Below, one piece after another: positions 11,403 to 60,825 of a stretch of 64,000 nucleotides of DNA. The stretch lies in IMG/VR virus record IMGVR_UViG_3300026274_000001; one strand, written 5' to 3'. The stretch's first letter is position 1, and every line of letters starts with the position of its first letter. Source of the DNA: a virus. Taxonomy: Duplodnaviria > Caudoviricetes. The notes below the pieces were generated by a model. It saw nothing but the letters and a program-made list of their open reading frames with translations, did not search any database and was not told the origin of the DNA. The translations under genes were made by a program, and so were the position numbers.

Positions 11403-12665
11403 ATGCAAATCATCCAAGAAGAAAAACTCGATTTCTCATCAGTGCTCATCCGTCCGGAAAGAAGTACTCTTGGTAGTCGAAAAGATGTGGTTCTCAGCCG
11501 CACATTCCAATTCAAACATACCAACGCCAAGTGGACCGGAGTGCCGATTATTGCGGCAAACATGGACACAACTGGCACTATTGAAATGTTTAAGGCATTG
11601 AGTCAACACACGATGTTGACTGCGCTACACAAGCATCACGATGCTCAGACTCTGGTCGATCATTATATGGCTGGTACAGACCCAGAAAAGGTTGTTCAAC
11701 ATTTTAATGAACAAGCCGAATGGGCGAATAAGTTTGGTGACGATGCTGATGGCAAAGCAGATCGAGAAGATGACGACGAGCGTGGTATCGAACGTCACGA
11801 ACCATATCTGCATGGGGTACAGCGCCAATTTATTCAAACATTGGCAAGTAAATTCAGCTTCTACAGTATGGGCATTACCAATACTGATATGGAGAAGTTC
11901 CGCAATCTATACACTCACCTAAGCAATCTTTGCTATAACTTTGATCCTTCTCACTCTCATGGCACAGCTCATCAGGCGCATCCTATTCGCATGGTTTGTG
12001 TTGATGTGGCAAATGGTTACACTGACACCTTCGACACGTTTATCAAACAACTGCGGAAAAACTACCCGCACTTGATTATTATGGCTGGTAATGTAGTTAC
12101 GGCCAACATGACTGAGCAATTGATCATGTCAGGTGCTGATATTGTCAAGGTTGGTATTGGTCCTGGTAGCGTGTGTACCACCCGTAAGATGACTGGCGTT
12201 GGCTATCCCCAACTGTCAGCAGTTATTGAATGTGCATCCGCTGCTCACGGCGTGGGTGGTTTGGTTTGTAGCGATGGTGGATGCACGGTTCCCGGTGACG
12301 TCGCCAAAGCTTTTGGCGGAGGTGCCGACTTTGTGATGCTAGGTGGTATGTTGGCAGGTACGACCGAAGCTGCAGGTGCCATAGTAACCGACGATGACGG
12401 CAATATGTTTAAAGAGTTCTATGGCATGAGTTCTGCTACTGCCATGGGGAAGTATGCTGGTGGTGTAGCGAAGTATCGTGCTAGTGAAGGAAAGACCGTA
12501 CAGATCCCCTACAAGGGTCCTGTAGACACTGTGGTGCAAGATGTATTGGGTGGATTGCGAAGCACCTGTACCTATGTGGGCGCAAGCAAGCTTAAAGAAC
12601 TAACAAAACGAACTACTTTCATTAAAGTAGCAAATCAAATTAACAATGTATTTGGCAAATCATGA
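11403..12665 (+). CDS. guaC: GMP reductase (with two insertions)
   Basis: [58 protein letters not shown]. Confidence 0.95.
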
Positions 12666-20938: not shown

Positions 20939-22300
20939 TTACTTAATTTTCTTCAAGTCGTCTAATTCAGTCTTGTAGATTTCACGCAAACGCGCAGGAG
21001 ACTTCAAGATCGCTTTGTGTTCCTTGATATTACCTTGCAAGCGAGCAATGTTTTCCTTTGTAACACCAAGGAAGTCAGTAGCCCATTTGAAAGTTGGCAA
21101 ACTCACAATCTTATCAATCTGTGATGCATCAAGACCAATCTTCGATGTCAACATATCAACATCACTTTCCACTTCAGCCTTGTTTGCTTTCTTGCTCAAC
21201 CGTTCTGGTAGCTTACCATCAAAGCAAGCCTTGATACCTTGCCAATACTTGAGTTCGTAGCTGTCATCGTCCAACATCTTTGCATAACGGGTCGTGTACC
21301 ACTTCAGACGCCATTCCACAAATTCTTTGACTAGCGTTTCTGCACTGGTGTATTGACGAATACTTGTGCCATTCCAATCAATAACCACTATACGCTCAGT
21401 TGCACGTTGGCGCAACTTAAAGAATTCAATTACGTCCTGTTCCGTCCAGCCCTTCAACTCGCCACGCTTGAATGTGATTCGAATATCAATAACTTTGGTA
21501 CTGTCATCCACGAAAGTAACAATCTTATCCTCTTCTTCCATCTTGACTAGACGCTTACGGAAAGCTTCTAGGGCTAAGTTTGGAGGAAGTTCCGTAATCT
21601 TAACCAATGACGTGTTGACAATCTCAACCTTACCAGTAAACTCCCAGACATTTGGCTCGAGGTTCTTGACTGATACGTCCAAGTAATCGAAACTTGGTTC
21701 CAAACCCTTTGGTTCCTTACCATCAAGTGCTTGCTGTGTGGCTGCAACCAATTTCTTGAGGTTACGGGGTAGAATATCAGTAGACCAACCCACAGCAATA
21801 CCACTAACGCCGTTCAACAGAACTAACGGGATGAGTGGCAGAAAGTGTTCTGGCTGTTTCGTTGAACCGTCATAGTTGTCCTTTACTGGGACAATATCCA
21901 AGTCCTTGTAAAGCAACATGTCACTTGACTTGTTCTTCTTTACATAGGTATAACGTGGGGCACCGATGCCTTCCACTGGAGCAACACGCGTACCAAATGC
22001 ACCAATGCCATCAAGCAGTGTTACATTGTTGACGTATGGTGCAGCCAACATACTGATGGCCATTGCAGCTGAAGTGTCACCAGCCAGATATAGACCACCG
22101 GAAATCATTTCACCAGCTAGTGAAATTGTCTTAATCTTTTCTGATTTATTTCTAATAGTCCAAAGTGCCTTTCTTTGACTGTCTTTTAGACCGTCAGATA
22201 CGTTTGGAATGGCGCGCTGTTCGCACACATAGATAGAATAATCTCTTGAAGTGTCTTTGATGTAGTCACTAGTGGTAGGGATTTTTATTTTAGTTGTCAT
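20939..22300 (-). CDS. gyrA: Type IIA topoisomerase, breakage-reunion subunit (GyrA/ParC/T4 gp52-like, no C-terminal pinwheel)
   Basis: RAIPNVSDGLKDSQRK, GIGAFGTR, GAPRYT (catalytic Tyr), PLVLLNGVSGIAVGWST. Confidence 0.93.
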   Translation of the reverse strand: MTTKIKIPTTSDYIKDTSRDYSIYVCEQRAIPNVSDGLKDSQRKALWTIRNKSEKIKTISLAGEMISGGLYLAGDTSAAMAISMLAAPYVNNVTLLDGIGAFGTRVAPVEGIGAPRYTYVKKNKSSDMLLYKDLDIVPVKDNYDGSTKQPEHFLPLIPLVLLNGVSGIAVGWSTDILPRNLKKLVAATQQALDGKEPKGLEPSFDYLDVSVKNLEPNVWEFTGKVEIVNTSLVKITELPPNLALEAFRKRLVKMEEEDKIVTFVDDSTKVIDIRITFKRGELKGWTEQDVIEFFKLRQRATERIVVIDWNGTSIRQYTSAETLVKEFVEWRLKWYTTRYAKMLDDDSYELKYWQGIKACFDGKLPERLSKKANKAEVESDVDMLTSKIGLDASQIDKIVSLPTFKWATDFLGVTKENIARLQGNIKEHKAILKSPARLREIYKTELDDLKKIK

Positions 22301-23632: not shown

Positions 23633-25513
23633 TTACAATCCGATCCAAGCTTTACGATCATCTGATCTCTTGGAATTAAAAATCAAATCCAATGTTTCTT
23701 TCATATCGCCGTTTTCATCAGTCAACGCCATAAGCTTTGGTTCAGCAAGAGAATATGACCAGTCATCTTCAGTCAATGTTCCCAATCCCTTAGCTCGGGT
23801 AATACCCCAGCCCTTGTATTGCTCTGAATCGAAATCCAAGTGGTTATCACTGTACCAATACTTTCTAGTCTTACCCTTTTCAGCAATAATAAACGGAGTC
23901 ATAAAAATATGAACTACCGGTTCCTGCTTGGGGTCGTACAATTCTGGCCAGTACGTGAAGAAAAAGTTATTCAATAACGCACCAATATTCAGACCGTCTG
24001 GATCCATGTCATGAGCGATATAAATCTTACCAAAGCGCAGATTTTCACGCTTTGCTTTCTGACCTGGAATCAGACCAACCGCATTCATGATATCCTTCAA
24101 TGCGCCATCTTCCAGAACGTCCTTGATTGCTGCTCCATGAACATTCATAACTTTACCCTTCAATCCCAAGCCCCCGTGGATCTTTGGATCGCGTACCGAT
24201 GCCATACCACTGATAGCTGACAATCCTTCGGCCAGGAACAAGATGCACTTTGTACGATCGGTACCGCTTGCATCCATCAGACCAGCTACCTTGCTGCGCA
24301 GAACTTGCTTAACTAGCTTATTGGTATCAGCCGCATCTTTCTTCATCGTGCGTTCAGCACAGCGAGCATAGATTGCGTCTATCCAATCGCCATACTTCTT
24401 GATAATGTTCTTGAAGAAGTCAGGATCCTCTAATGCTTTACGCACGTGAGTGGAAGTTTCTTCGTTATTCAGTCGAGTCTTGGCTTGAGAGTTAAAGTTT
24501 GGCGCATCCATGGTTGTGATGTTATACATCAAGAGACCATCGGCTAAGTCACTTCGGTTTGGTTGCAACTTACGCTTCTTGCTTTCACGCTCTAAGGCAG
24601 ATAACAACCCGGAGAAGAAGTAACGCTTGAAAGTGTCCATGTGGACACCACCGTCAAATGCTGGAATGGAGTTGACTAGTGAATGTTGATGCTCACCATC
24701 TTCAAAGAAATGTGGGATCAACCAAAAGTCACTAGTGAAAGAACCTTCCTGTACACCAATATGAATTGGCTTAAAGCCTGGGAACAAATTCTTTTCAAGA
24801 CCTGGCTTAACTTTAACCTTAGTGCCGTTATAGTAAATGCTGATTTTTGGATTACACAGAGCGGCTTCGTAGATACGAGCTTGCAAGAATTCTTCAGGCA
24901 ATGTCATATCTGGGAATACTTTTGATGACAGTTTAAATGTCACCATAGTGCCTGTTGCTTTGGCAGTATTCTTTTTCTTGATTACTGGGGCCTCGACGAT
25001 TAGATCTGAATCTAATTCGGCACCTTCAGTAAATTCTTGACGGAAATGTTGATTATCGCGTTCTACATCTAGATGAAACCACTCTGAACAGAAGTTCACC
25101 ACAGACGCACCAATGCCGTTTGTGCCTCGAAGCTGTCCACGTTCACCGAAGTTACGACCAGCCCTGGCATGGCTCAATGCCAGCGTCGCAGCATGTACGC
25201 CGTGCTCTTCGTTAAAGTCGATTGGAATACCACGACCATTATCAGCAACGCTGAAGATCATAGTGGTTGGATCATATGTGATATCAATTCGATCGCCATG
25301 ACCATGACCTGCAACTTCGTCAAGCGAATTATCTAAGATTTCACGGAATGCAACGAATACTGACGGAATCCACGTTTGTTCGGTGGCGTAGGGTGCACCA
25401 TTTTCATACTGTAGAACTATTTGTGTATGAGGATCACGAGAACCCAAATACATCTCAGTTCGAACCCGTGCGTGTCCTGCTTCTGTTAGCTTAACAATTG
25501 TGTCGTTTGCCAT
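23633..25513 (-). CDS. gyrB: Type IIA topoisomerase, ATPase/TOPRIM subunit (GyrB/ParE/T4 gp39+60-like)
   Basis: EILDNSLDE, DNGRGIP, GTNGIGASVVN, AEGLSA, DMDPDG, RAKGLG. Confidence 0.95.
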   Translation of the reverse strand: MANDTIVKLTEAGHARVRTEMYLGSRDPHTQIVLQYENGAPYATEQTWIPSVFVAFREILDNSLDEVAGHGHGDRIDITYDPTTMIFSVADNGRGIPIDFNEEHGVHAATLALSHARAGRNFGERGQLRGTNGIGASVVNFCSEWFHLDVERDNQHFRQEFTEGAELDSDLIVEAPVIKKKNTAKATGTMVTFKLSSKVFPDMTLPEEFLQARIYEAALCNPKISIYYNGTKVKVKPGLEKNLFPGFKPIHIGVQEGSFTSDFWLIPHFFEDGEHQHSLVNSIPAFDGGVHMDTFKRYFFSGLLSALERESKKRKLQPNRSDLADGLLMYNITTMDAPNFNSQAKTRLNNEETSTHVRKALEDPDFFKNIIKKYGDWIDAIYARCAERTMKKDAADTNKLVKQVLRSKVAGLMDASGTDRTKCILFLAEGLSAISGMASVRDPKIHGGLGLKGKVMNVHGAAIKDVLEDGALKDIMNAVGLIPGQKAKRENLRFGKIYIAHDMDPDGLNIGALLNNFFFTYWPELYDPKQEPVVHIFMTPFIIAEKGKTRKYWYSDNHLDFDSEQYKGWGITRAKGLGTLTEDDWSYSLAEPKLMALTDENGDMKETLDLIFNSKRSDDRKAWIGL

Positions 25514-25684
25514 ATTTGCTCTCAATTAAAGGTTGTATTTGTAACATTGATTAGTTAAAGGTGTCAAAATGCCATTTAGGCATGGCTAATATTACTTTTC
25601 ACCATTCCATTTATACCGCGGCATAATATTATTTACTTTGGCGCTTTAGTCATAAATAATCTGATTACGGATTAGGAGTCCTAT

Positions 25685-27945: not shown

Positions 27946-27993
27946 TCGTTAGGACTACATAAATACCTTTACAGGACTTTTAAGGGAATTTTG

Positions 27994-29256
27994 ATGTCAG
28001 ACGTCGACCAAAATCTACATTGCTCTTTTTGTAAAAAAGGAGCCCAAGAAGTAAAGAAGCTTATCGCTGGCCCAGAGTCAGTTCACATTTGTGACGAATG
28101 CGTATCATTGTGCTACAGTATTCTTAATGATACAGAACAGGCCTCATCTAAGCCAGCAGAAACGAAAACAGATTTGGGCGATATTCCAAGTCCGGCAAAA
28201 ATCAAAGGGTTCCTTGACCAATATGTTATTGGTCAAGATTACGCTAAGATGGTTATTTCAGTTGCCGTTCATAATCATTATATGCGTCTCCAAAACCCCA
28301 TCATTGATGAGGTTGAAATCGAGAAGAGTAATATCCTGGTGCTTGGTCCGACCGGGTCAGGTAAGACATTACTTGCGCAGTCAATTGCTCGTTGTTTGAG
28401 CGTTCCGTTTGCTATCGCGGACTCAACTGGCCTCACAGAAGCTGGTTATGTTGGTGATGACGTGGAAAGTATTGTCAGTCGTTTGTTACAGAACGCTGGT
28501 GGTGATGTGAAGAAAGCTGAACAGGGTATCATTTACCTTGACGAAATCGACAAGAAGAGCAAGAAGGATTCAGCTTCTGGCTCACGTGACGTTTCCGGCG
28601 AAGGGGTACAGCAAGCACTGCTGAAGATTATTGAAGGTTCTGATATTATGGTATCGGCGGGTGGCAAGAAAGGGCCAAATGCTGAACAAGTTAAAATCAA
28701 TACTAGAAATATTTTGTTTATCGTTGGTGGTGCATTCGTGGGTGTTGAGAAGGTAGTTGAGAAAGCTTTGAACAAAAACAAGGGTCTTGGATTTGGTGCA
28801 AACTTGAACGACCAGAAGATTGACATAAATGATTTACTGCGTAAAGTTGAACCATCACATTTGATGAACTACGGTATAATTCCTGAACTTATTGGCCGTT
28901 TGCCAGTTATTGCTCCTTTGCAAGAATTGTCAACAGATCAAATGGTTCGTGTATTGACTGAACCCAAAAATGCAATTGTCAAACAATTTGCAAAAATGTT
29001 TAAACTTGAAGGCGTCGAACTTGAAATCACACCAGAGGCCCTGGCTGAGATATCAGAAATCGCAATCAAGCGCAAGACTGGTGCTCGTGGATTACGTTCC
29101 ATCCTCGAAAATAACCTGATTGCAACACAATTTAAGTTGCCAGATCTAGTTGCTGCGGGCGCGACTAAAATTCTAGTAACTCTTGAAACAATCCGTGAAG
29201 GGAAAGAGCCGCAAATCCTTTATGGCAATGATAACAAATCAATTGCGACTCAATAA
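27994..29256 (+). CDS. clpX: ClpX AAA+ unfoldase
   Basis: C4 zinc finger CSFC..CDEC, GPTGSGKT, GYVG, DEIDK, RDVSGEGVQ, LGF loop, GARGLR. Confidence 0.97.
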   Translation: MSDVDQNLHCSFCKKGAQEVKKLIAGPESVHICDECVSLCYSILNDTEQASSKPAETKTDLGDIPSPAKIKGFLDQYVIGQDYAKMVISVAVHNHYMRLQNPIIDEVEIEKSNILVLGPTGSGKTLLAQSIARCLSVPFAIADSTGLTEAGYVGDDVESIVSRLLQNAGGDVKKAEQGIIYLDEIDKKSKKDSASGSRDVSGEGVQQALLKIIEGSDIMVSAGGKKGPNAEQVKINTRNILFIVGGAFVGVEKVVEKALNKNKGLGFGANLNDQKIDINDLLRKVEPSHLMNYGIIPELIGRLPVIAPLQELSTDQMVRVLTEPKNAIVKQFAKMFKLEGVELEITPEALAEISEIAIKRKTGARGLRSILENNLIATQFKLPDLVAAGATKILVTLETIREGKEPQILYGNDNKSIATQ

Positions 29257-52037: not shown

Positions 52038-53258
52038 TTACTGCTTTTGATCCAATATCATCTTGCAAGCATCAAGCATGAATGCGTGATCACTAAAATG
52101 ACCGTCATACATACCGCTGTTGAACCAAGCGTACTTCATAGACAACAGCATGGTGCCCATTTCCTTGCCAGGCTGCATACCAAGCTCCTTCAAGTCATCA
52201 CCAGTAATAGGAAACACTGGGACGTCCCATTGCTTGATTTGATCTGCAACTGCAACTCGGCCAAGCATCAATGCTGCTTCCACTGCATAGTCAACTGAAG
52301 CACCTTGCATAACGATGCTTTCTTTGAGACGTTGAACAAGAACAGCATCATCCTTAGACTTGTAGTCCCTGAACTTCACCAAGTATTGCATCAAACGCGT
52401 GTCCTTGGTGCTGATCTTCAACCGCTTACCAAAGTCTGCGACTTGTTCCGTAGTTTTGAACAACGTGGTAAACACCGTTGCTGCATTCTTCGTATGTGCA
52501 ACAGCAACCTTCATTGCTGCCAAACGTGTATCAGTGGGTTGTGGCAAGTCGCTGGGCATCAATACATTGCACTGTGACATTACTTCATAAACGGCAGGGG
52601 CGGACGGGTGCGTCATCATCTTACTGACTTCCTGCCACACACGCTCACTAGATACTTGCCTCAAGCCTTCAGCATATTTTGTGATAGCTGCAATCTGCGT
52701 GACATCGTATGCACCTTTGCTGAAACGACCTGAAAATCTAAAGAACCGCAAAATGCGCAAGTAGTCTTCTTGAATGCGCAAAGCAGGGTCACCAACAAAG
52801 CGCACAACTCCAGCCACCAAATCCTTCTGGCCTTCGTACGGATCGTCCAACACGCCGTCAAATGTCATCGACATCGCATTGATAGTCAAGTCACGCCGAG
52901 CCAAATCCTCGTACCACAAACGCGTGAATGTGACCTTTGCATGACGACCATCCGTCTCCGTATCGTAGCGCAAGCTGGTGATTTCGTATGTTTCACCATT
53001 GATGATTACCGAAATAGTACCGTGATCAATTCCGGTTGGCTCGAACCGAATGCCAGCCTTAGTATAGATACGAATAGCTTCATCAGGAAATGCGTCAGTG
53101 CAGAGGTCGATATCCTTGGGTGTTTGATCGCAGAGAATATCACGAACAGCACCACCTACGATTCGAATATCGAATCCGTCGGCCTGAAACAAGGCGCGTA
53201 ATGCGAGCAAATCAGCATTAACTACTTGATCAAGTATTTTGGTATGCATTGTGTTCAT
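52038..53258 (-). CDS. cca: Class II CCA-adding tRNA nucleotidyltransferase
   Basis: VGGAVRD, KDIDL, GIDHGT, EITSLR, DGRHA, DLARRDLTINAM, EDYLRILR, SERVWQE. Confidence 0.92.
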   Translation of the reverse strand: MNTMHTKILDQVVNADLLALRALFQADGFDIRIVGGAVRDILCDQTPKDIDLCTDAFPDEAIRIYTKAGIRFEPTGIDHGTISVIINGETYEITSLRYDTETDGRHAKVTFTRLWYEDLARRDLTINAMSMTFDGVLDDPYEGQKDLVAGVVRFVGDPALRIQEDYLRILRFFRFSGRFSKGAYDVTQIAAITKYAEGLRQVSSERVWQEVSKMMTHPSAPAVYEVMSQCNVLMPSDLPQPTDTRLAAMKVAVAHTKNAATVFTTLFKTTEQVADFGKRLKISTKDTRLMQYLVKFRDYKSKDDAVLVQRLKESIVMQGASVDYAVEAALMLGRVAVADQIKQWDVPVFPITGDDLKELGMQPGKEMGTMLLSMKYAWFNSGMYDGHFSDHAFMLDACKMILDQKQ

Positions 53259-53334: not shown

Positions 53335-54120
53335 ATGAATACACCAAATACAATAAACTCTGTGGCTGGACCTGCTCCCGCGACTACGCCTTGGTCTGGT
53401 GTTACACAGCAACATCAAGGACAGTTACCGCTAGGTAGTCCACAATATGGGGCTAACTATCAGCAGCCCTCGGTGGGTGGGGTATTGATTGGTAATGCAA
53501 TACAGCTCTCGGCGAACGGGAACGTATCAATAAATACTAACGTATCAATAAATCAATCAGCATACATGTTCTATAAATGGAACCTGGGGTATGATTTTCC
53601 CAAAGAATTATTAATATCTGGCGTTCCATTAGTTCCAGCACTTTATATAGATAATGCTTGCACTATGATGTTTCATATTAGCGTATGGATAGAAGTATGC
53701 AAACCCAATACTGCTGATTTTGGTGTGATGTGGGATGGCAAGGCAACCAAGTATTCGTCGTTGAGTGGGGCATTAAATACTACTGAAGAATTTGAAGGTG
53801 TACTTATGATCAAGCAAGGTGTCACGTTCGATACCTTTAATGTTTGGTGGGATGAGTACACATCACGATTTGATGGTGATAGCTGGAAGTTTGAGCAGTT
53901 ACCATTGGTCAAAGAAGGTAAGGAAATTTCTGGCTGTCCCATTGCGCATGGTGAGAAAGTAAGCTATACTGGCAAACAAATTATGGCAACCGATAAGCTA
54001 TTTGATCGTTGGTGCTGGATTGTTGAACGGACTAGTCAGCCAGTATGGTTTAGTAATGACTTTTGGTTTTTCAACAACACATCAGAAATGCTGATGTACA
54101 AATTGATCGATGAAAAATAA
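53335..54120 (+). CDS. Large FKLxW-family protein, triplet member 1
   Basis: FHISVW..WWDEY..RWCWIVERT..FFNNTSEMLMYKL. Confidence 0.8.
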   Translation: MNTPNTINSVAGPAPATTPWSGVTQQHQGQLPLGSPQYGANYQQPSVGGVLIGNAIQLSANGNVSINTNVSINQSAYMFYKWNLGYDFPKELLISGVPLVPALYIDNACTMMFHISVWIEVCKPNTADFGVMWDGKATKYSSLSGALNTTEEFEGVLMIKQGVTFDTFNVWWDEYTSRFDGDSWKFEQLPLVKEGKEISGCPIAHGEKVSYTGKQIMATDKLFDRWCWIVERTSQPVWFSNDFWFFNNTSEMLMYKLIDEK

Positions 54121-54895
54121 AAAAAATATATTTGTCCGTATTTGGCGTGCAATCGTATGTGCTGATTTCGTAGAAGAACGACTCGTTGCAATGAAAGCGC
54201 AAGAACTGGATGCACAAGCTAGTCTTGCTGCCGGTTATGACGATCCTATGGAAGATTCAAGGCAAGTGCTAAGTCCTTCTGATGACGATACGGCTAGGGT
54301 ACTGGGTGGTAGTGGTCATTTTATTTGGCGATTATATGATGAATGGCCCTTAGAAGTAATTGACGGCGAAAATAAACCCAAGATAGCATTGAAAATGGAT
54401 GCAAGGGCTTTTATGTTTCATGTGAGTACTTGGGCACTAGTAACTGGGCGTAAACAACGTAATTTGTGTGTGTCAATTAGAAATATGCGCGATGAAAATT
54501 TCCAATCACATCACACTGGTATTTTGCTTCTACCAGAAGGTGAAGAATATGATTCTTTCCAAATTTGGTGGAAAGCATATGTGGAACGATTTAGCTTACG
54601 ATATTTAAATGGCGCCAAAACGATTGACAAATATGGCAACTCTGAAGTTCATATATTCCCAGAGATACCTGATAGTTATTCTATAGAAGGCACTACCTTC
54701 ATCCATGAAGGTATGGAATACATGTCTAAATCGGATTTTTGGAATCCCAGTAATGACTTATTTAAGCAGTGGTGCTGGATTGTTGAAAATTGTACAGGTA
54801 ATGTTTGGGTCACTCATAAGCATTTCATATTCGAAGAATCATCAGACGCAGTATTATTCAAATTAGTAAATCCAGAAGACAAATTAGAAGAATAA
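54110..54895 (+). CDS. Large FKLxW-family protein, triplet member 2
   Basis: FHVSTW..WWKAY..QWCWIVENC..FEESSDAVLFKL. Confidence 0.8.
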   Translation: MKNKKNIFVRIWRAIVCADFVEERLVAMKAQELDAQASLAAGYDDPMEDSRQVLSPSDDDTARVLGGSGHFIWRLYDEWPLEVIDGENKPKIALKMDARAFMFHVSTWALVTGRKQRNLCVSIRNMRDENFQSHHTGILLLPEGEEYDSFQIWWKAYVERFSLRYLNGAKTIDKYGNSEVHIFPEIPDSYSIEGTTFIHEGMEYMSKSDFWNPSNDLFKQWCWIVENCTGNVWVTHKHFIFEESSDAVLFKLVNPEDKLEE

Positions 54896-54898
54896 AAA

Positions 54899-55561
54899 AT
54901 GAGACAAAACGTATTTCAAAGAACTAAGCGACGTATTTCCGATTGGTACTTCGGTATTGACTACGAAGATGGACGAATTACAGCAAACAGTCATGATGAT
55001 GATGATGACTGTTGCGCGGTGGGTGGTAATTCATTCTCACTATATGCAATGTTAGGTACTGAGCCTGATTGGGCCGAAACCGTTCTTACTGGCACTAATA
55101 AATTTAAGGTTGGTGATAAGATAACTGCGGTACTTAAAACTGACGAAGCTCTTGGTTCATTTTTCCATATGGCTGCATTTATCCAGATGACTGGCGTCAA
55201 TCATGGTTATCATATTTCAGTCAATAAGTATGAAGACAAGCAGAATGATGATCATTTTCCATCAGTGGTATTGATTAGTGATGAAATCAAACCACAATAT
55301 GACGAATGGATGGAAACTTATAGCAAGCGTGTTTGTGATTTCGAACGAGCACTACCAGTTATTCAAGAAGGCGACGAAGTAACCGGTACTGCAATCTCGT
55401 TCAAGGGTAGAATACGTCGTGAAAGCTGCCCTGATGACACCCTATTCAACGAATGGATATGGATCATGGAAAACTGCGATGGTCGCGTGGTTGCATCCAA
55501 TAAGTGTTGGATATTTGAAGATACTACCGACGCAGTAAAGTACAAATTGGCTAGATTCTAA
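54899..55561 (+). CDS. Large FKLxW-family protein, triplet member 3
   Basis: FHMAAF..WMETY..EWIWIMENC..FEDTTDAVKYKL. Confidence 0.8.
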   Translation: MRQNVFQRTKRRISDWYFGIDYEDGRITANSHDDDDDCCAVGGNSFSLYAMLGTEPDWAETVLTGTNKFKVGDKITAVLKTDEALGSFFHMAAFIQMTGVNHGYHISVNKYEDKQNDDHFPSVVLISDEIKPQYDEWMETYSKRVCDFERALPVIQEGDEVTGTAISFKGRIRRESCPDDTLFNEWIWIMENCDGRVVASNKCWIFEDTTDAVKYKLARF

Positions 55562-55575
55562 GTTAGTCAGTCAAG

Positions 55576-55603
55576 AAAAAGCCCAGCAATGCTGGGCTTT
55601 TTC
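55576..55603. terminator. Bidirectional terminator
   Basis: AAAAAGCCCAGC-aat-GCTGGGCTTTTT between convergent genes. Confidence 0.8.
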
Positions 55604-56896
55604 TTATTTCGTGTTATTCAATCTGCGCAACTTGCGTACCGCATCGACAACTCCCGTTGTCGTTTGTTCCTTCACCCCTCGATGACGAATCGTTGCTTCA
55701 AAGTTCGCCATTTCCTTGTCACCAATAATGACAACGGCTGGAACACTTTTACCCAAGAAACCTTTCATTCGTTTGTTGAAGTGCGACGGATCTGAGTTGA
55801 TCTCAACTCGTATGCCTTCACCTTCCAATTGCTCAAGTACATTCTTGGCAAAGCGTAAATGATCCGCACCAACAGGAACAATACCCACTTGCAAGGGGCA
55901 CAACCAGAATGGTAGTTTCCCTTCATGATGTTCTAATAGAATGCCCATAAAGCGTTCCACAGAGCCTAGGATCGCCCGGTGCAGCATAACTGGATGCGCG
56001 CTTGTACCTTCCGTCGTGATGTATTGGGCCCCCAACCGTTCAGGTAGAACTAGATCGAGTTGCAGCGTTCCACATTGCCATTGACGCCCACGTTTATCCG
56101 TTAGGGTGAATTCAAGCTTGGGACCATAGAATGCACCTTCGCCTGGTTGCAGTTCAACTACCAAGCCGGCGGCGATCGCAGCATCAGCTAACCCCTTTTC
56201 AGCTAGATCCCAAGTTGCATCGGTGCCTGCTCGCTTTTCTGGTCGTGTTGACAGCTTAACTGATACGTCATGGAAGCCGAAGTCTCGGTAAACATCCAAC
56301 AGCAGCTTGCAGAACTTCACACTTTCTTCATTGATTTGTTCTTCAGTACAGAAAATATGAGCGTCGTCTTGTGTGAAGGCACGCACCCGCATTAAGCCTA
56401 GAAGGGAACCTGATGGTTCATTACGGTGACACGCACCGAATTCAGCTAAGCGCATGGGAAGCTGCTTATATGATACTAAGCCATGATTGAAAATCTGCAC
56501 ATGGCCGGGGCAATTCATTGGCTTGAGCGCTAGGTACTTTACATCTGATGCGCCACAGTTGCAATCAAGGCTGCTTTGCGATTCCCAGGAAAAACAATTT
56601 TCCTTATGATTGTGATCTGCATCTTGTTCAGTGACAAACATGTTTTCACGATACTTGTCCCAATGGCCAGACTTTTCCCACAATGAACGATCCATCAGCT
56701 GGGGAGTTTTTACTTCCTGGTAGCCATCTTTACGAACTTTGTCTCGAATATATTCTTCAATAGTACGGAACAACGTGTAGCCGTTTGGATGCCAAAATAC
56801 GCTCCCAATTGCTTCTTCCTGTATATGAAAGAGATCCAAGTCTTTGCCAATCTGGCGGTGATCTCCCGCTTCTAAATCATTCACATTAGTCTCCAT
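55604..56896 (-). CDS. thrS: Threonyl-tRNA synthetase lacking N-terminal TGS/editing domains
   Basis: DHRQIGK, SGHWDKY, KPMNCPGH, GLMRVRAFTQDDAH, GAFYGPK, WQCGTLQLD, MLHRAILGS. Confidence 0.96.
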   Translation of the reverse strand: METNVNDLEAGDHRQIGKDLDLFHIQEEAIGSVFWHPNGYTLFRTIEEYIRDKVRKDGYQEVKTPQLMDRSLWEKSGHWDKYRENMFVTEQDADHNHKENCFSWESQSSLDCNCGASDVKYLALKPMNCPGHVQIFNHGLVSYKQLPMRLAEFGACHRNEPSGSLLGLMRVRAFTQDDAHIFCTEEQINEESVKFCKLLLDVYRDFGFHDVSVKLSTRPEKRAGTDATWDLAEKGLADAAIAAGLVVELQPGEGAFYGPKLEFTLTDKRGRQWQCGTLQLDLVLPERLGAQYITTEGTSAHPVMLHRAILGSVERFMGILLEHHEGKLPFWLCPLQVGIVPVGADHLRFAKNVLEQLEGEGIRVEINSDPSHFNKRMKGFLGKSVPAVVIIGDKEMANFEATIRHRGVKEQTTTGVVDAVRKLRRLNNTK

Positions 56897-57235
56897 GAAA
56901 TTAATTGTATGATTTTATAGGAAAATAATGTTTGGTGCTATATAAGCCCACGAATGAATGAAAATAGTAAGACCCTTTGTTTAACCAGGCGGTCCATGAT
57001 TACGGAAATCCTTACGGGCCGTACATCAATTACTTTCCTGTCGCGTGTGGTCGGATCACTTGCTCATAGCTTTGGTCCGGGGTTTCCAAAGCCGTTTTTA
57101 CTGCACCTACCGATCGTGCCTATAGTATATCAGAGTGTCGGGTGACATACGTCATTATATAAATTGGCTATTATATATCAAAATAATTATTTCTATTTTG
57201 CATCCTATGTGAAATGGCACCACAATGCATTCACT

Positions 57236-57479: not shown

Positions 57480-58724
57480 ATGGCAAATTTAGTTATAAAG
57501 TTGTTTGACAAGATGTATGTGGGTTTCCAAAAACGTAATACCGAAAGTGGTTCACCGTTGGGATCATTGACCCCTTGGGGCGAAGATGCGGTATCTAGAA
57601 AAAAGATGACGCAAGTTGATAATTGGTGTAAAGACAAACTAAAAGCCGTTATATTGGACAACGTACCAGTATCTGGTTTCCGTGTTAGTGACAGCGCTCG
57701 TCAAAGCAGTTGGAGTGGAGAGAATACTTTTATTCAAATTGAAGATCCTCGAGGTTTTGAATTGTTTATCTCTGTTGACAACATGGTTCAAATCATGAAC
57801 GGCAATACTATTGTTGATGGTGAAATCAAGATTCCATGTGTATGGGGACGTGACGGTAGTATTAATATATTGTTACCAATCAATAGCGAACCATACAAAA
57901 ATGCAATTGAAAATACTGAACGTGTAAAACAAACGTTCAATATGCGTGGTGTAAAACACGGCAACAAAATCGAATTAAAAGATGGGCGCATCGGTATCTA
58001 CTACGGGGCGTATTATCAAGTTATACGTGAACAGCATAATGAAGATATTAAATCTCCATGTGGTACTATGACTTTAGACCGTCAATTTGAAAAGGTTGCC
58101 ATTAATCAGCAAAAATTACATATCACTCATATTGTTGAAAACAAAGCACAGCCAGATTTTAAGCCTCACTTTGATATCACAAAGACTATACGGGTGTCTA
58201 GGCAAATTAACCCAGACTCGATTACAGCAGCTGAAGCTGAACAGTATGTAAATGATCACTTGAAGGATCGTAATACTTACCGTGCTTGTATTGGATATAC
58301 CGCATCACTTGATCTGGATTTTAAGTTCGAGATCACTACTGAGGTCACCACTTCTGACGCTTTGCGACAGCAGCAAGGGGCCAAGAACAGTTGGTCAACT
58401 GGAAAGACTATATTTATTGCTAAACACGAAGCTGATGATGTTTATCTATTGTGTGACGGAAGTATTCTTATTGATATGACACGGCCGAATAGATATGTTT
58501 ACGGTATGGGTCATGTGACCAACGATGCCCGTGTTTATGGCAGACAAATTGACATGGAACAATTTTTAACTGGTGAGTTTGATATTCTCCAGCGATTCAA
58601 AACTGGTGATTTGAAAACAGACAATAAAATCAAAGCATATGATGAAGCTGATTTGGTATATCTGCAACCATATGTGATTTACACTAGTTCCAAGACTGGT
58701 GTTGAATATAAGATGCCCTACTAA
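57480..58724 (+). CDS. Conserved jumbo-phage protein, module copy 2
   Basis: YVGFQ..PLG..DPRGFEL..CVWGRDG..LLP.NSEP. Confidence 0.8.
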   Translation: MANLVIKLFDKMYVGFQKRNTESGSPLGSLTPWGEDAVSRKKMTQVDNWCKDKLKAVILDNVPVSGFRVSDSARQSSWSGENTFIQIEDPRGFELFISVDNMVQIMNGNTIVDGEIKIPCVWGRDGSINILLPINSEPYKNAIENTERVKQTFNMRGVKHGNKIELKDGRIGIYYGAYYQVIREQHNEDIKSPCGTMTLDRQFEKVAINQQKLHITHIVENKAQPDFKPHFDITKTIRVSRQINPDSITAAEAEQYVNDHLKDRNTYRACIGYTASLDLDFKFEITTEVTTSDALRQQQGAKNSWSTGKTIFIAKHEADDVYLLCDGSILIDMTRPNRYVYGMGHVTNDARVYGRQIDMEQFLTGEFDILQRFKTGDLKTDNKIKAYDEADLVYLQPYVIYTSSKTGVEYKMPY

Positions 58725-58766
58725 CGGACACGACGTTTCACGTAAATAGTGGAACGGAGTTCAATA

Positions 58767-59378
58767 ATGACAACCATTCTGTACATTCACGGTGCGTTCG
58801 CGACACCAAGTAGCTTTAATCGTATTAAAGAAAACCTTCCAAATCACGAAGCCATTATGCTAGAATATAATGTTGGTGATAATATCAACAATGTTATATC
58901 CGATTGCACAAAAAAATTAAAAGAAAATGGCAATCGAGTGTCCATTGTGGCACATAGTTTGGGTGGCGTATTAGCCGCCATCATTGCACAAAAATGTCCC
59001 CTTGTGGACAAGACTGTAACAATGAGCACACCCTTTGGTGGCAGCAAAGCAGCAGATATGATGAAGTGGTTTAATCCACATCCTATGTTTGAAACTATTA
59101 GTTCACAAAGTTCATTACTTCGGAATTTGTATCAATCCAAAGCTGGCTGTCCAACACTAAGTCTCGTTACCACTAAGGGTCAAAACCCTATGATTAGCGA
59201 AGATAATGACGGAGTGGTCTCGGTTAAAAGCCAGACTGCTTGGCTTTCGCCAGAATACATCAGCGTGCCGTACAATCACTTTGAAGTGTTGTTGGCTGAT
59301 GAAACAATAATAAAAATAAAAGAGTTTCTGTTTGATGAAAGATTTGATAATGATGATCGGAGCAGCGGGCTCCGGTAA
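58767..59378 (+). CDS. Alpha/beta hydrolase (lipase/esterase, PGAP1-like)
   Basis: IHGA oxyanion, AHSLGG nucleophile, STPFGGS, NDGVV, terminal HF. Confidence 0.85.
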   Translation: MTTILYIHGAFATPSSFNRIKENLPNHEAIMLEYNVGDNINNVISDCTKKLKENGNRVSIVAHSLGGVLAAIIAQKCPLVDKTVTMSTPFGGSKAADMMKWFNPHPMFETISSQSSLLRNLYQSKAGCPTLSLVTTKGQNPMISEDNDGVVSVKSQTAWLSPEYISVPYNHFEVLLADETIIKIKEFLFDERFDNDDRSSGLR

Positions 59379-59823
59379 GAGCACTTGGACCAAAAAGTTT
59401 CTTGCCACCACGGATAAACAATATGTAGTTCTGGGTACTGACGCCATCTTCGTAGAATGGGGCAATGCGATTGGAAAGAATTATTCTGAAGCATTTGCGC
59501 ATTTTAAATACAAGGATGTAGAAAATGAATTCAATCTACGTTTGGGCTCGGCAATTGCGGCAGGTAAGAACATAATTTGGGATCAAACCAATTTGACATT
59601 GAAGTCCCGTTCTGCAAAATTGGCACAAGTACCAAAAGCATATAAGAAACGAGCAGTCGTTTTCAACTTGCCAAAGTCAGTTGTTATGGAACGTGCTCGC
59701 AATGAAGATCGCATCGCTGAGGGTAAGAAGATCCCAACGATGGTTATTCATAGTATGTTTAAACAATTTGAAATGCCGGATCAGTTTGAATTTGATGAAA
59801 TCATCGAAGTGATTACGGCATAA
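59335..59823 (+). CDS. P-loop kinase (polynucleotide kinase/AAA_33-like)
   Basis: IGAAGSGKSTW, GTD, IIWDQTN..R, IP..VI.SM. Confidence 0.8.
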   Translation: MKDLIMMIGAAGSGKSTWTKKFLATTDKQYVVLGTDAIFVEWGNAIGKNYSEAFAHFKYKDVENEFNLRLGSAIAAGKNIIWDQTNLTLKSRSAKLAQVPKAYKKRAVVFNLPKSVVMERARNEDRIAEGKKIPTMVIHSMFKQFEMPDQFEFDEIIEVITA

Positions 59824-60748: not shown

Positions 60749-60825
60749 GCGGCGTTAGCTCAGACGGATAGAGCACGAGCCTTCTAAGCTCGGGGTCACT
60801 GGTTCGAATCCAGTACGCCGTACCA
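60749..60825 (+). tRNA. tRNA-Arg (anticodon TCT), CCA encoded
   Basis: Acceptor GCGGCGT/ACGCCGT, D-loop GGATA, anticodon arm CGAGC-CTTCTAA-GCTCG, GGTTCGAATCC, ACCA. Confidence 0.95.

Follow-up and report, generated by a model that had tools for sequence, protein, structure and literature searches.

The stretch of DNA analysed here, referred to below as the window, comprises 64,000 nucleotides (nt) of the virus record IMGVR_UViG_3300026274_000001 (IMG/VR; Duplodnaviria, Caudoviricetes). It carries a gene for a threonyl-tRNA synthetase (ThrRS) whose product lacks the N-terminal editing region of the bacterial enzyme and bears an insert with conserved histidine and cysteine residues. Our findings point to a working, editing-less ThrRS in which this insert probably forms a small second metal site. 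The gene and the main parts of its product are the following.

55604..56896, minus strand: editing-less ThrRS, an open reading frame (ORF) of 430 amino acids (aa) with an ATG start
56540..56620, minus strand: acidic insert, aa 93-119, in the beta4-beta5 hairpin, with 26 extra residues by alignment to Escherichia coli ThrRS
55925..56536, minus strand: class II catalytic core, aa 121-324, downstream of the insert (PF00587, tRNA-synt_2b, E 3.4e-49)
55622..55891, minus strand: anticodon-binding domain, aa 336-425 (PF03129, HGTP_anticodon, E 2.1e-13)
56510..56512, minus strand: catalytic zinc ligand C129 (E. coli C334), invariant in 48 aligned ThrRS
56357-56359, minus strand: catalytic zinc ligand H180, invariant in 48 aligned ThrRS
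55979-55981, minus strand: catalytic zinc ligand H306, invariant in 48 aligned ThrRS

Pfam recognizes nothing in the 430-aa protein beyond the class II core and the HGTP anticodon-binding domain that follows it, and neither TGS (PF02824) nor tRNA_SAD (PF07973) was detected. The canonical bacterial architecture, with its N-terminal TGS and N2/tRNA_SAD domains, is therefore the only one of the family's membership features that the phage enzyme does not display. The protein scores 474.6 bits against the NCBIfam thrS equivalog TIGR00418, above the cut-off of 383.65, through a match that covers only positions 170-562 of the 565 in the model. Its best solved relatives are N-terminally truncated constructs of E. 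coli and Salmonella ThrRS (E ~1e-128); it is 48% identical to the E. coli enzyme over the core and anticodon domain, and Foldseek returns template modelling (TM) scores of 0.83-0.89 against 1evk and 6l2p. A linker helix normally connects the editing domain of ThrRS to the core. Since residue 10 of the phage protein pairs with the second residue of the E. coli deltaN construct, the phage ThrRS appears to begin inside this helix, and in its relatives the ORF closes no more than 8 codons upstream of the start. The first-pass annotation, made from the letters alone, had described a 430-aa editing-less ThrRS that starts at the catalytic core, on which Pfam, TIGR00418 and the deltaN alignment agree, and had called its catalytic zinc ligands intact, as is borne out by the invariant triad C129, H180 and H306, which matches E. 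coli C334, H385 and H511 (numbering offset 205). R158, D178, Y257, K260, Q274, Q279 and R315 are likewise invariant columns among the 48 aligned enzymes; we take these to be E. coli R363, D383, Y462, K465, Q479, Q484 and R520, the motif 2/3 residues that bind threonine and ATP. Judged by its sequence the gene shows no sign of being a pseudogene, and it very probably encodes an active, naturally editing-less ThrRS of a huge phage of ~0.5 Mb.

Truncated E. coli ThrRS is reported to mischarge serine (Dock-Bregeon and co-workers, 2000). No editing module turned up in the window, either by tblastn or by a profile search, both based on the first 250 aa of 101 full-length ThrRS. The search could be extended to a whole genome through a relative, a 523,836-bp IMG/VR contig with direct terminal repeats that is rated 100% complete and encodes a ThrRS 75% identical to that of the window. 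The entire window is collinear with 200-256 kb of this genome, including the CCA-adding enzyme, three tandem paralogs, the ThrRS gene and a tRNA-Arg(TCT) ~4 kb from it. At E<=1 the relative genome yielded no PF07973 (tRNA_SAD), PF08915 (archaeal Thr-ED) or PF04073 (YbaK-type) gene, while control genomes matched. The separate editing subunit that the first-pass annotation had raised as the contrary case, a Ser-tRNA(Thr) deacylase gene of the split ThrRS-cat/ThrRS-ed type, is thus found neither in the window nor in the complete collinear relative. The single PF00587 gene of the relative genome is the ThrRS, and PF00133, PF00152, PF00579 and PF00749 were all not found there, so that ThrRS is the sole aminoacyl-tRNA synthetase (aaRS) detected by these five family models. 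The same genome carries 59 tRNAs, among them Thr(tgt), Thr(cgt) and Thr(ggt); all three tRNA-Thr have G1-C72 and C2-G71, presumably the standard acceptor identity pairs of E. coli tRNA-Thr.

On this basis the phage ThrRS would charge the tRNA-Thr of both host and phage in the infected cell. Rejection of serine would rest on the active site, through pre-transfer hydrolysis of the kind demonstrated for yeast mitochondrial MST1, in which tRNA-dependent pre-transfer editing and Ser-AMP hydrolysis proceed without an editing domain (PMC4267643). The host's full-length ThrRS may also edit in trans, or some mischarging with serine may be tolerated.

In the alignment to E. coli ThrRS, residue 92 pairs with E. 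coli residue 323 and residue 120 with residue 325, which places the insert at aa 93-119 and gives 27 residues, 26 of them extra, where E. coli has a single one. It directly precedes the KPMNC strand, the bearer of a catalytic zinc ligand. An insert of 21-25 aa ahead of KPMNC had been noted in the first-pass annotation; it is there, but it is somewhat larger, and the peptide HNHKENCFSWESQSSLDCNCG accounts for exactly aa 95-115 (56552-56614) of it. Measured as the spacing from GHW to KPMNC, the loop is 48 residues long in the phage ThrRS compared with 22-23 in 197 of the 217 full-length ThrRS that we sampled, cellular ones included, where the maximum is 38. The His/Cys insert was not found in any of these 217 enzymes, contrary to what one would expect of a feature common in cellular ThrRS. 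It occurs only in the closest clade, which consists of six 90%-identity clusters and their members, 75-100% identical to the window ThrRS and all 419-434 aa long. A protein search limited to the insert region gave P0001 and P0002 as the sole matches, and a metagenome scan for further clade members returned, among the matches listed, only ~50%-identical ThrRS, nearly all of them full-length. An origin by local duplication was considered and rejected, as there are no direct repeats at the DNA level and the resemblance between CNCG and MNCPG is too weak.

The 17 distinct proteins of the closest clade contain 13 distinct insert sequences, and within the clade the insert evolves much faster than the remainder of the ThrRS, with a mean majority frequency of 0.56 as against 0.91 for the rest of the protein. 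Its size varies from 23 to 30 extra residues, with indels, and all 17 sequences agree in just 4 of its 27 columns, as opposed to 272 of the 403 elsewhere. These four are all cysteine or histidine and form the motif H-x3-C-x7-15-C-x-C:

56606-56608, minus strand: putative metal ligand H97, invariant in the 17 clade sequences
56594-56596, minus strand: putative metal ligand C101, invariant in the 17 clade sequences
56561-56563, minus strand: putative metal ligand C112, invariant in the 17 clade sequences
56555-56557, minus strand: putative metal ligand C114, invariant in the 17 clade sequences

By our own arithmetic, the chance that four random picks among the 27 insert positions would be Cys/His only is p ~3e-4, and the indels are located between the ligand pairs H97/C101 and C112/C114. 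The first-pass annotation was right to single out a His/Cys insert as far as H97 and the three cysteines are concerned, though the second histidine, H95, is not conserved and is Y, V or E in clade relatives. The insert has a net charge of -5, and K120 beside it is K or R in 16 of the 17 sequences. Four residues that stay constant while the remaining insert drifts form the pattern expected of a structural metal site, with zinc as the likeliest metal, and their arrangement is that of a zinc knuckle, with four conserved Cys/His ligands in two close pairs joined by a variable linker of 7-15 residues. We therefore consider it probable, from this pattern of conservation, that the insert holds a putative second metal site, likely a small structural zinc, separate from the catalytic zinc; a measurable functional role for such a site is more doubtful.

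Where the insert sits in the working enzyme can be estimated from MST1 (PDB 3UGQ, 4YYE), which like the phage ThrRS is editing-less, which has a matching fold (Foldseek TM 0.82) and whose tRNA-reaching beta4-beta5 loop is the loop that bears the phage insert. The two enzymes differ in that MST1 is 33% identical, eukaryotic, organellar and adapted to an unusual tRNA, and its loop is short, with ~4 extra residues and a lysine and without a Cys/His motif. In the MST1-tRNA complex, Ser166 is equivalent to E. coli Ser367 (PMC4756836), which sets the registers of MST1 at E. coli minus 201 and of the phage ThrRS, downstream of the insert, at E. coli minus 205. MST1 Lys123, which sits in the flexible beta4-beta5 loop (PMC4756836), then maps no more than one or two residues from the insert's C-terminal end, next to K120. 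In the non-catalytic monomer of MST1 this loop touches the 5'-phosphate and the A66/U67 backbone of the other monomer's tRNA, shifts ~3.6 Å from the dimer interface toward the tRNA upon binding, and comes near the partner's active-site lid (PMC4756836). By analogy, the phage insert would be an expanded cross-subunit element close to the acceptor end. It may be pictured as an acidic surface excursion of the beta4-beta5 hairpin, shaped by a putative His-Cys3 site (H97, C101, C112, C114); the putative knuckle would then lie where the two subunits meet, close to the lid over the partner's active site and to the acceptor stem and 5'-phosphate of the tRNA that the partner binds. The location of the hairpin in MST1 suggests that such a knuckle would be positioned to stiffen or tune inter-subunit and acceptor-end geometry, not to grip RNA directly.

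Several observations weigh against this interpretation. A Pfam scan of the isolated insert at E<=10 gave no zinc-finger match and one chance hit only, and AlphaFold places aa 92-119 at a predicted local distance difference test (pLDDT) score <50 in two runs (22 and 48 sequences), so that the second metal site proposed in the first-pass annotation draws its support from the conservation of H97, C101, C112 and C114 and receives none from family matches or the predicted fold. The His/Cys motif is missing in the sister clade (P0007-P0010) and in several other editing-less phage ThrRS, which indicates that it is dispensable for an editing-less enzyme. The position given to the insert is carried over in sequence register, and not by superposition, from a yeast enzyme with 33% identity. 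All 47 distinct expanded loops, viral and full-length ThrRS together, are acidic (net -1 to -9), and this charge makes a direct grip of the insert or of the other expanded loops on the RNA backbone unlikely. Finally, the absence of an editing gene from this phage's whole genome is extrapolated from its collinear relative. More plausibly than gripping RNA, then, the knuckle stiffens or tunes the interface, or is a tolerated decoration. Taken as a whole, a working editing-less ThrRS with a putative zinc-knuckle insert at the dimer and acceptor-end interface is the best explanation that we can offer, and one that we hold to be somewhat better than an even bet.

The evolutionary setting bears on how the insert is to be read. 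In a FastTree maximum-likelihood tree of 138 ThrRS core sequences, 47 editing-less phage sequences form one clade (support 0.94) beside full-length cellular ThrRS, and the best cellular matches to the phage ThrRS are alphaproteobacterial. Among GenBank phages we found no near-identical phage, and the best ThrRS protein matches are at most 52% identical. The His/Cys subclade has 25 tips (support 0.999), and its sister, P0007-P0010, has a short, Cys-free loop; giant viruses contribute a separate group, likewise without the editing domain and with modestly expanded loops. The GHW-to-KPMNC spacing in editing-less viral ThrRS ranges from 25 to 94 with unrelated inserts, and a canonical loop is seen in ~9 of 61 of these short forms as against the great majority of full-length enzymes given above. 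Some full-length ThrRS nevertheless have 6-16 extra residues at the same site, and the short forms belong mostly to one clade and represent few independent lineages, for which reasons a tie between loop expansion and loss of the editing domain is only suggestive. One of the larger expansions is a 72-aa insert in the same hairpin of the ThrRS encoded at L074:10001-11317 (IMGVR_UViG_3300046665_000548, 607,744 bp). Several other editing-less huge-phage ThrRS share an insert type of the form STGD...TH; L002, L007, L008, L075 and L074 have different or larger inserts, and no Cys motif is present in the inserts of these five.

An insert without any adaptive role is an unlikely alternative. The beta4-beta5 turn would then be a permissive loop that gains insertions after the N-terminal domains are lost, with the His-Cys3 set kept for harmless folding. 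The many unrelated inserts of the editing-less viral enzymes, the extra residues of some full-length ones, the fast drift and indels at non-ligand positions and the sister clade that manages without the motif are all as this alternative would have it. What it accounts for poorly is that the four ligands have been kept without exception in a clade that has diverged to 75% identity with its loop resized, and that the adjacent basic residue, which MST1 uses for the 5'-phosphate, has also been kept. A permissive loop is in any case compatible with a structural zinc site, and the alternative thus overlaps with the explanation that we prefer. At the other extreme, the insert could stand in for the N2 domain as an acceptor-stem clamp that binds the partner subunit's tRNA directly, as might be supposed from the reach of the MST1 loop across the dimer to the acceptor stem and from the scarcity of canonical loops among the short forms. 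We regard this as very unlikely, because a net charge of -5, shared in sign by all examined expanded loops, is wrong for an RNA backbone, and because short forms drawn mostly from one clade make the association a reflection of few independent events.

The metal site itself could serve other ends than those favored above. Three cysteines and one histidine can ligate an Fe-S cluster as well as zinc, the insert cluster lies 15 residues from the catalytic ligand C129, and ThrRS activity in other systems is known to respond to zinc supply and thiol modification (PMC4787780, PMC7337905); the His-Cys3 set might accordingly be pictured as a redox or metal-sensing switch, working by thiol oxidation or an Fe-S cluster, that tunes ThrRS to the state of the infected cell. 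The sequence has no match to an Fe-S or redox motif, however, structural zinc is the more usual occupant of a short knuckle that combines C-x-C with H-x3-C, and no accessory redox genes adjoin the ThrRS gene, so we give this switch a slight chance of being right. More broadly, the knuckle might have arisen as a functional module once the editing domain had been lost, sitting between the subunits beside the lid of the partner's active site and the 5' end of its tRNA, where aminoacylation or the rejection of serine would be made to depend on the metal or redox state or on a docking partner; this we hold to be quite unlikely. Least credible of all, and in our view extremely improbable, is a ThrRS-derived factor with a role outside translation, either as a decoy for the host thrS operator or as a supplier of Thr-tRNA for a non-ribosomal reaction. 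The lone aaRS detected in a phage lineage with ~59 tRNAs could be thought to hint at such a role, and phage tRNA-dependent chemistry outside translation does exist, for example Mom with Gly-tRNA (PMC13219725). Against this stand the invariance of all catalytic and zinc residues and the thrS equivalog score above its cut-off; in addition, no structured leader or operator was detectable, and no threonine-transfer enzyme was seen nearby.

The preferred explanation, an editing-less ThrRS with a structural knuckle on its hairpin, combines known elements with a new one. Minimal ThrRS are known already in MST1, the crenarchaeal catalytic subunit and the engineered E. coli deltaN protein, and the His-Cys3 insert is new as a variant feature. 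The E. coli deltaN construct (residues 242-642; PDB 1EVK/1EVL) and full-length E. coli ThrRS (1QF6) have the zinc triad and substrate-binding residues in common with the phage enzyme, which starts ~9 residues ahead of the engineered truncation point; the deltaN truncation is artificial, however, and the natural E. coli enzyme has the TGS and N2 editing domains. The crenarchaeal split ThrRS-1 (PDB 3A31; Foldseek TM 0.74) likewise has a catalytic protein without an editing domain, but there editing comes from a free-standing gene, whereas the relative phage genome has neither PF08915 nor PF07973. The truncated architecture is shared by further editing-less ThrRS, from huge phages on IMG/VR contigs of 190-608 kb and from giant viruses in GVMAG bins, in which this loop is often expanded and acidic; their inserts are unrelated in sequence and are without the H-x3-C...C-x-C motif, which is confined to the 25-tip subclade. 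Structural zinc sites occur in insertions of other aaRS, such as the C-x-C...C-x-H site of E. coli GluRS and the zinc knuckles of MetRS, where loops or inserted modules close to the acceptor end of the tRNA harbour short Cys/His knuckles. These differ from the phage insert in synthetase class, position and ligand spacing, with no detectable homology. Although aaRS genes in huge phages have been published in general terms (PMC7162821), our literature search found no description of a phage ThrRS without editing domains, nor of this insert.

Editing-less ThrRS represent rare natural experiments in translational fidelity, and the huge-phage enzymes described here do without the editing domain across a whole clade; no gene to replace it was found in the complete genome of a relative. 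The clade repeatedly remodels one hairpin, which mediates tRNA contact across subunits in the one minimal ThrRS whose structure has been studied. The four residues of the His-Cys3 set offer a mutable handle on the part that this loop plays in dimer communication, acceptor-end handling and serine rejection, and on whether phages tolerate or exploit Thr-to-Ser mistranslation. Should the knuckle prove to be a functional module, it would give minimal ThrRS a novel means of controlling their fidelity or activity; should it be only a structural zinc on a permissive loop, the result is a minor refinement of annotation.

The genes directly next to ThrRS are on the other strand, and ThrRS itself lies between two candidate transcription signals.

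57154..57181, minus strand: sigma-70-like promoter candidate upstream of ThrRS, TTGATA-16-TATAAT, 11/12 consensus matches
55573..55605, unstranded: perfect 15-bp hairpin between convergent genes, candidate bidirectional terminator

The opposite strand, the promoter-like site and the hairpin downstream together make ThrRS look like a separate transcription unit. The promoter is a consensus match only, and such sites are no more frequent in the region than in shuffles. The distance from the promoter-like site to the start codon (56897-57153) is unusually long, at about 260 nt. The 267-nt region upstream of ThrRS has no Rfam family and a fold z of 0.07 versus shuffles. An operator mimic of thrS or a regulatory leader was rejected as a candidate, as nothing upstream matched Rfam and the weak Thr_leader matches are the hairpin at 55573..55605. 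The suggestion that the phage gene might bypass host thrS autoregulation accordingly finds no support in a 5' leader that lacks an Rfam match and folds like shuffles, and for a bypass of host defence, proposed alongside it, we found nothing in support.

The following features surround the gene or lie elsewhere in the window and in the relative genome (G001).

52038..53258, minus strand: CCA-adding tRNA nucleotidyltransferase (PF01743 and PF12627; NF009814 195 bits, below cut-off)
53335-54120, 54110-54895 and 54899-55561, plus strand: three tandem paralogs of 261/261/220 aa
45049-46290 and 57480-58724, plus strand: two paralogous ~413-aa proteins (phrog_6266, 2475, 30990, 14061, function unassigned in PHROGs)
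58749-59378, plus strand: alpha/beta-hydrolase-like ORF, overlapping the next ORF
59332-59823, plus strand: 163-aa AAA_33 P-loop kinase with weak similarity to Ser-tRNA(Sec) kinase and Pnkp
60749..60825, plus strand: tRNA-Arg(TCT), found by ARAGORN
11403-12665, 20939-22300, 23633-25525 and 27991-29256: IMPDH/GMP-reductase homolog, the two subunits of a T4-type topoisomerase II, and a ClpX-like AAA+ protein with a C4 zinc finger
182959-183462, 190515-190591 and 388999-389083 of the relative genome: transfer-messenger RNA (tmRNA) and unusual tRNAs

With the CCA-adding enzyme, the ThrRS, the P-loop kinase and hydrolase ORFs and the tRNA-Arg(TCT), this part of the window looks like a tRNA maintenance neighbourhood; the position of the CCA-adding enzyme is conserved in the relative genome, and the same tRNA-Arg lies at a similar distance from ThrRS there. 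The three tandem paralogs sit between the CCA enzyme and ThrRS and are all kept in the relative genome. They are ~25% identical pairwise (E ~1e-17) and have a common C-terminal W(C)WI(V/M)E motif, and they matched neither Pfam nor PHROG families. One of the two ~413-aa paralogs lies directly upstream of ThrRS. The tmRNA of the relative genome is a permuted two-piece molecule whose tag reads ANDNVFAMAA. Taken with the alphaproteobacterial affinity of the ThrRS, this tmRNA hints that the host is an alphaproteobacterium. The unusual tRNAs are one with the anticodon UCA, a possible reader of TGA, and a tRNA-Thr(UGU) of 85 nt with a long variable arm, uncommon for tRNA-Thr. The IMPDH/GMP-reductase, topoisomerase II and ClpX-like genes are typical core and auxiliary genes of huge phages.

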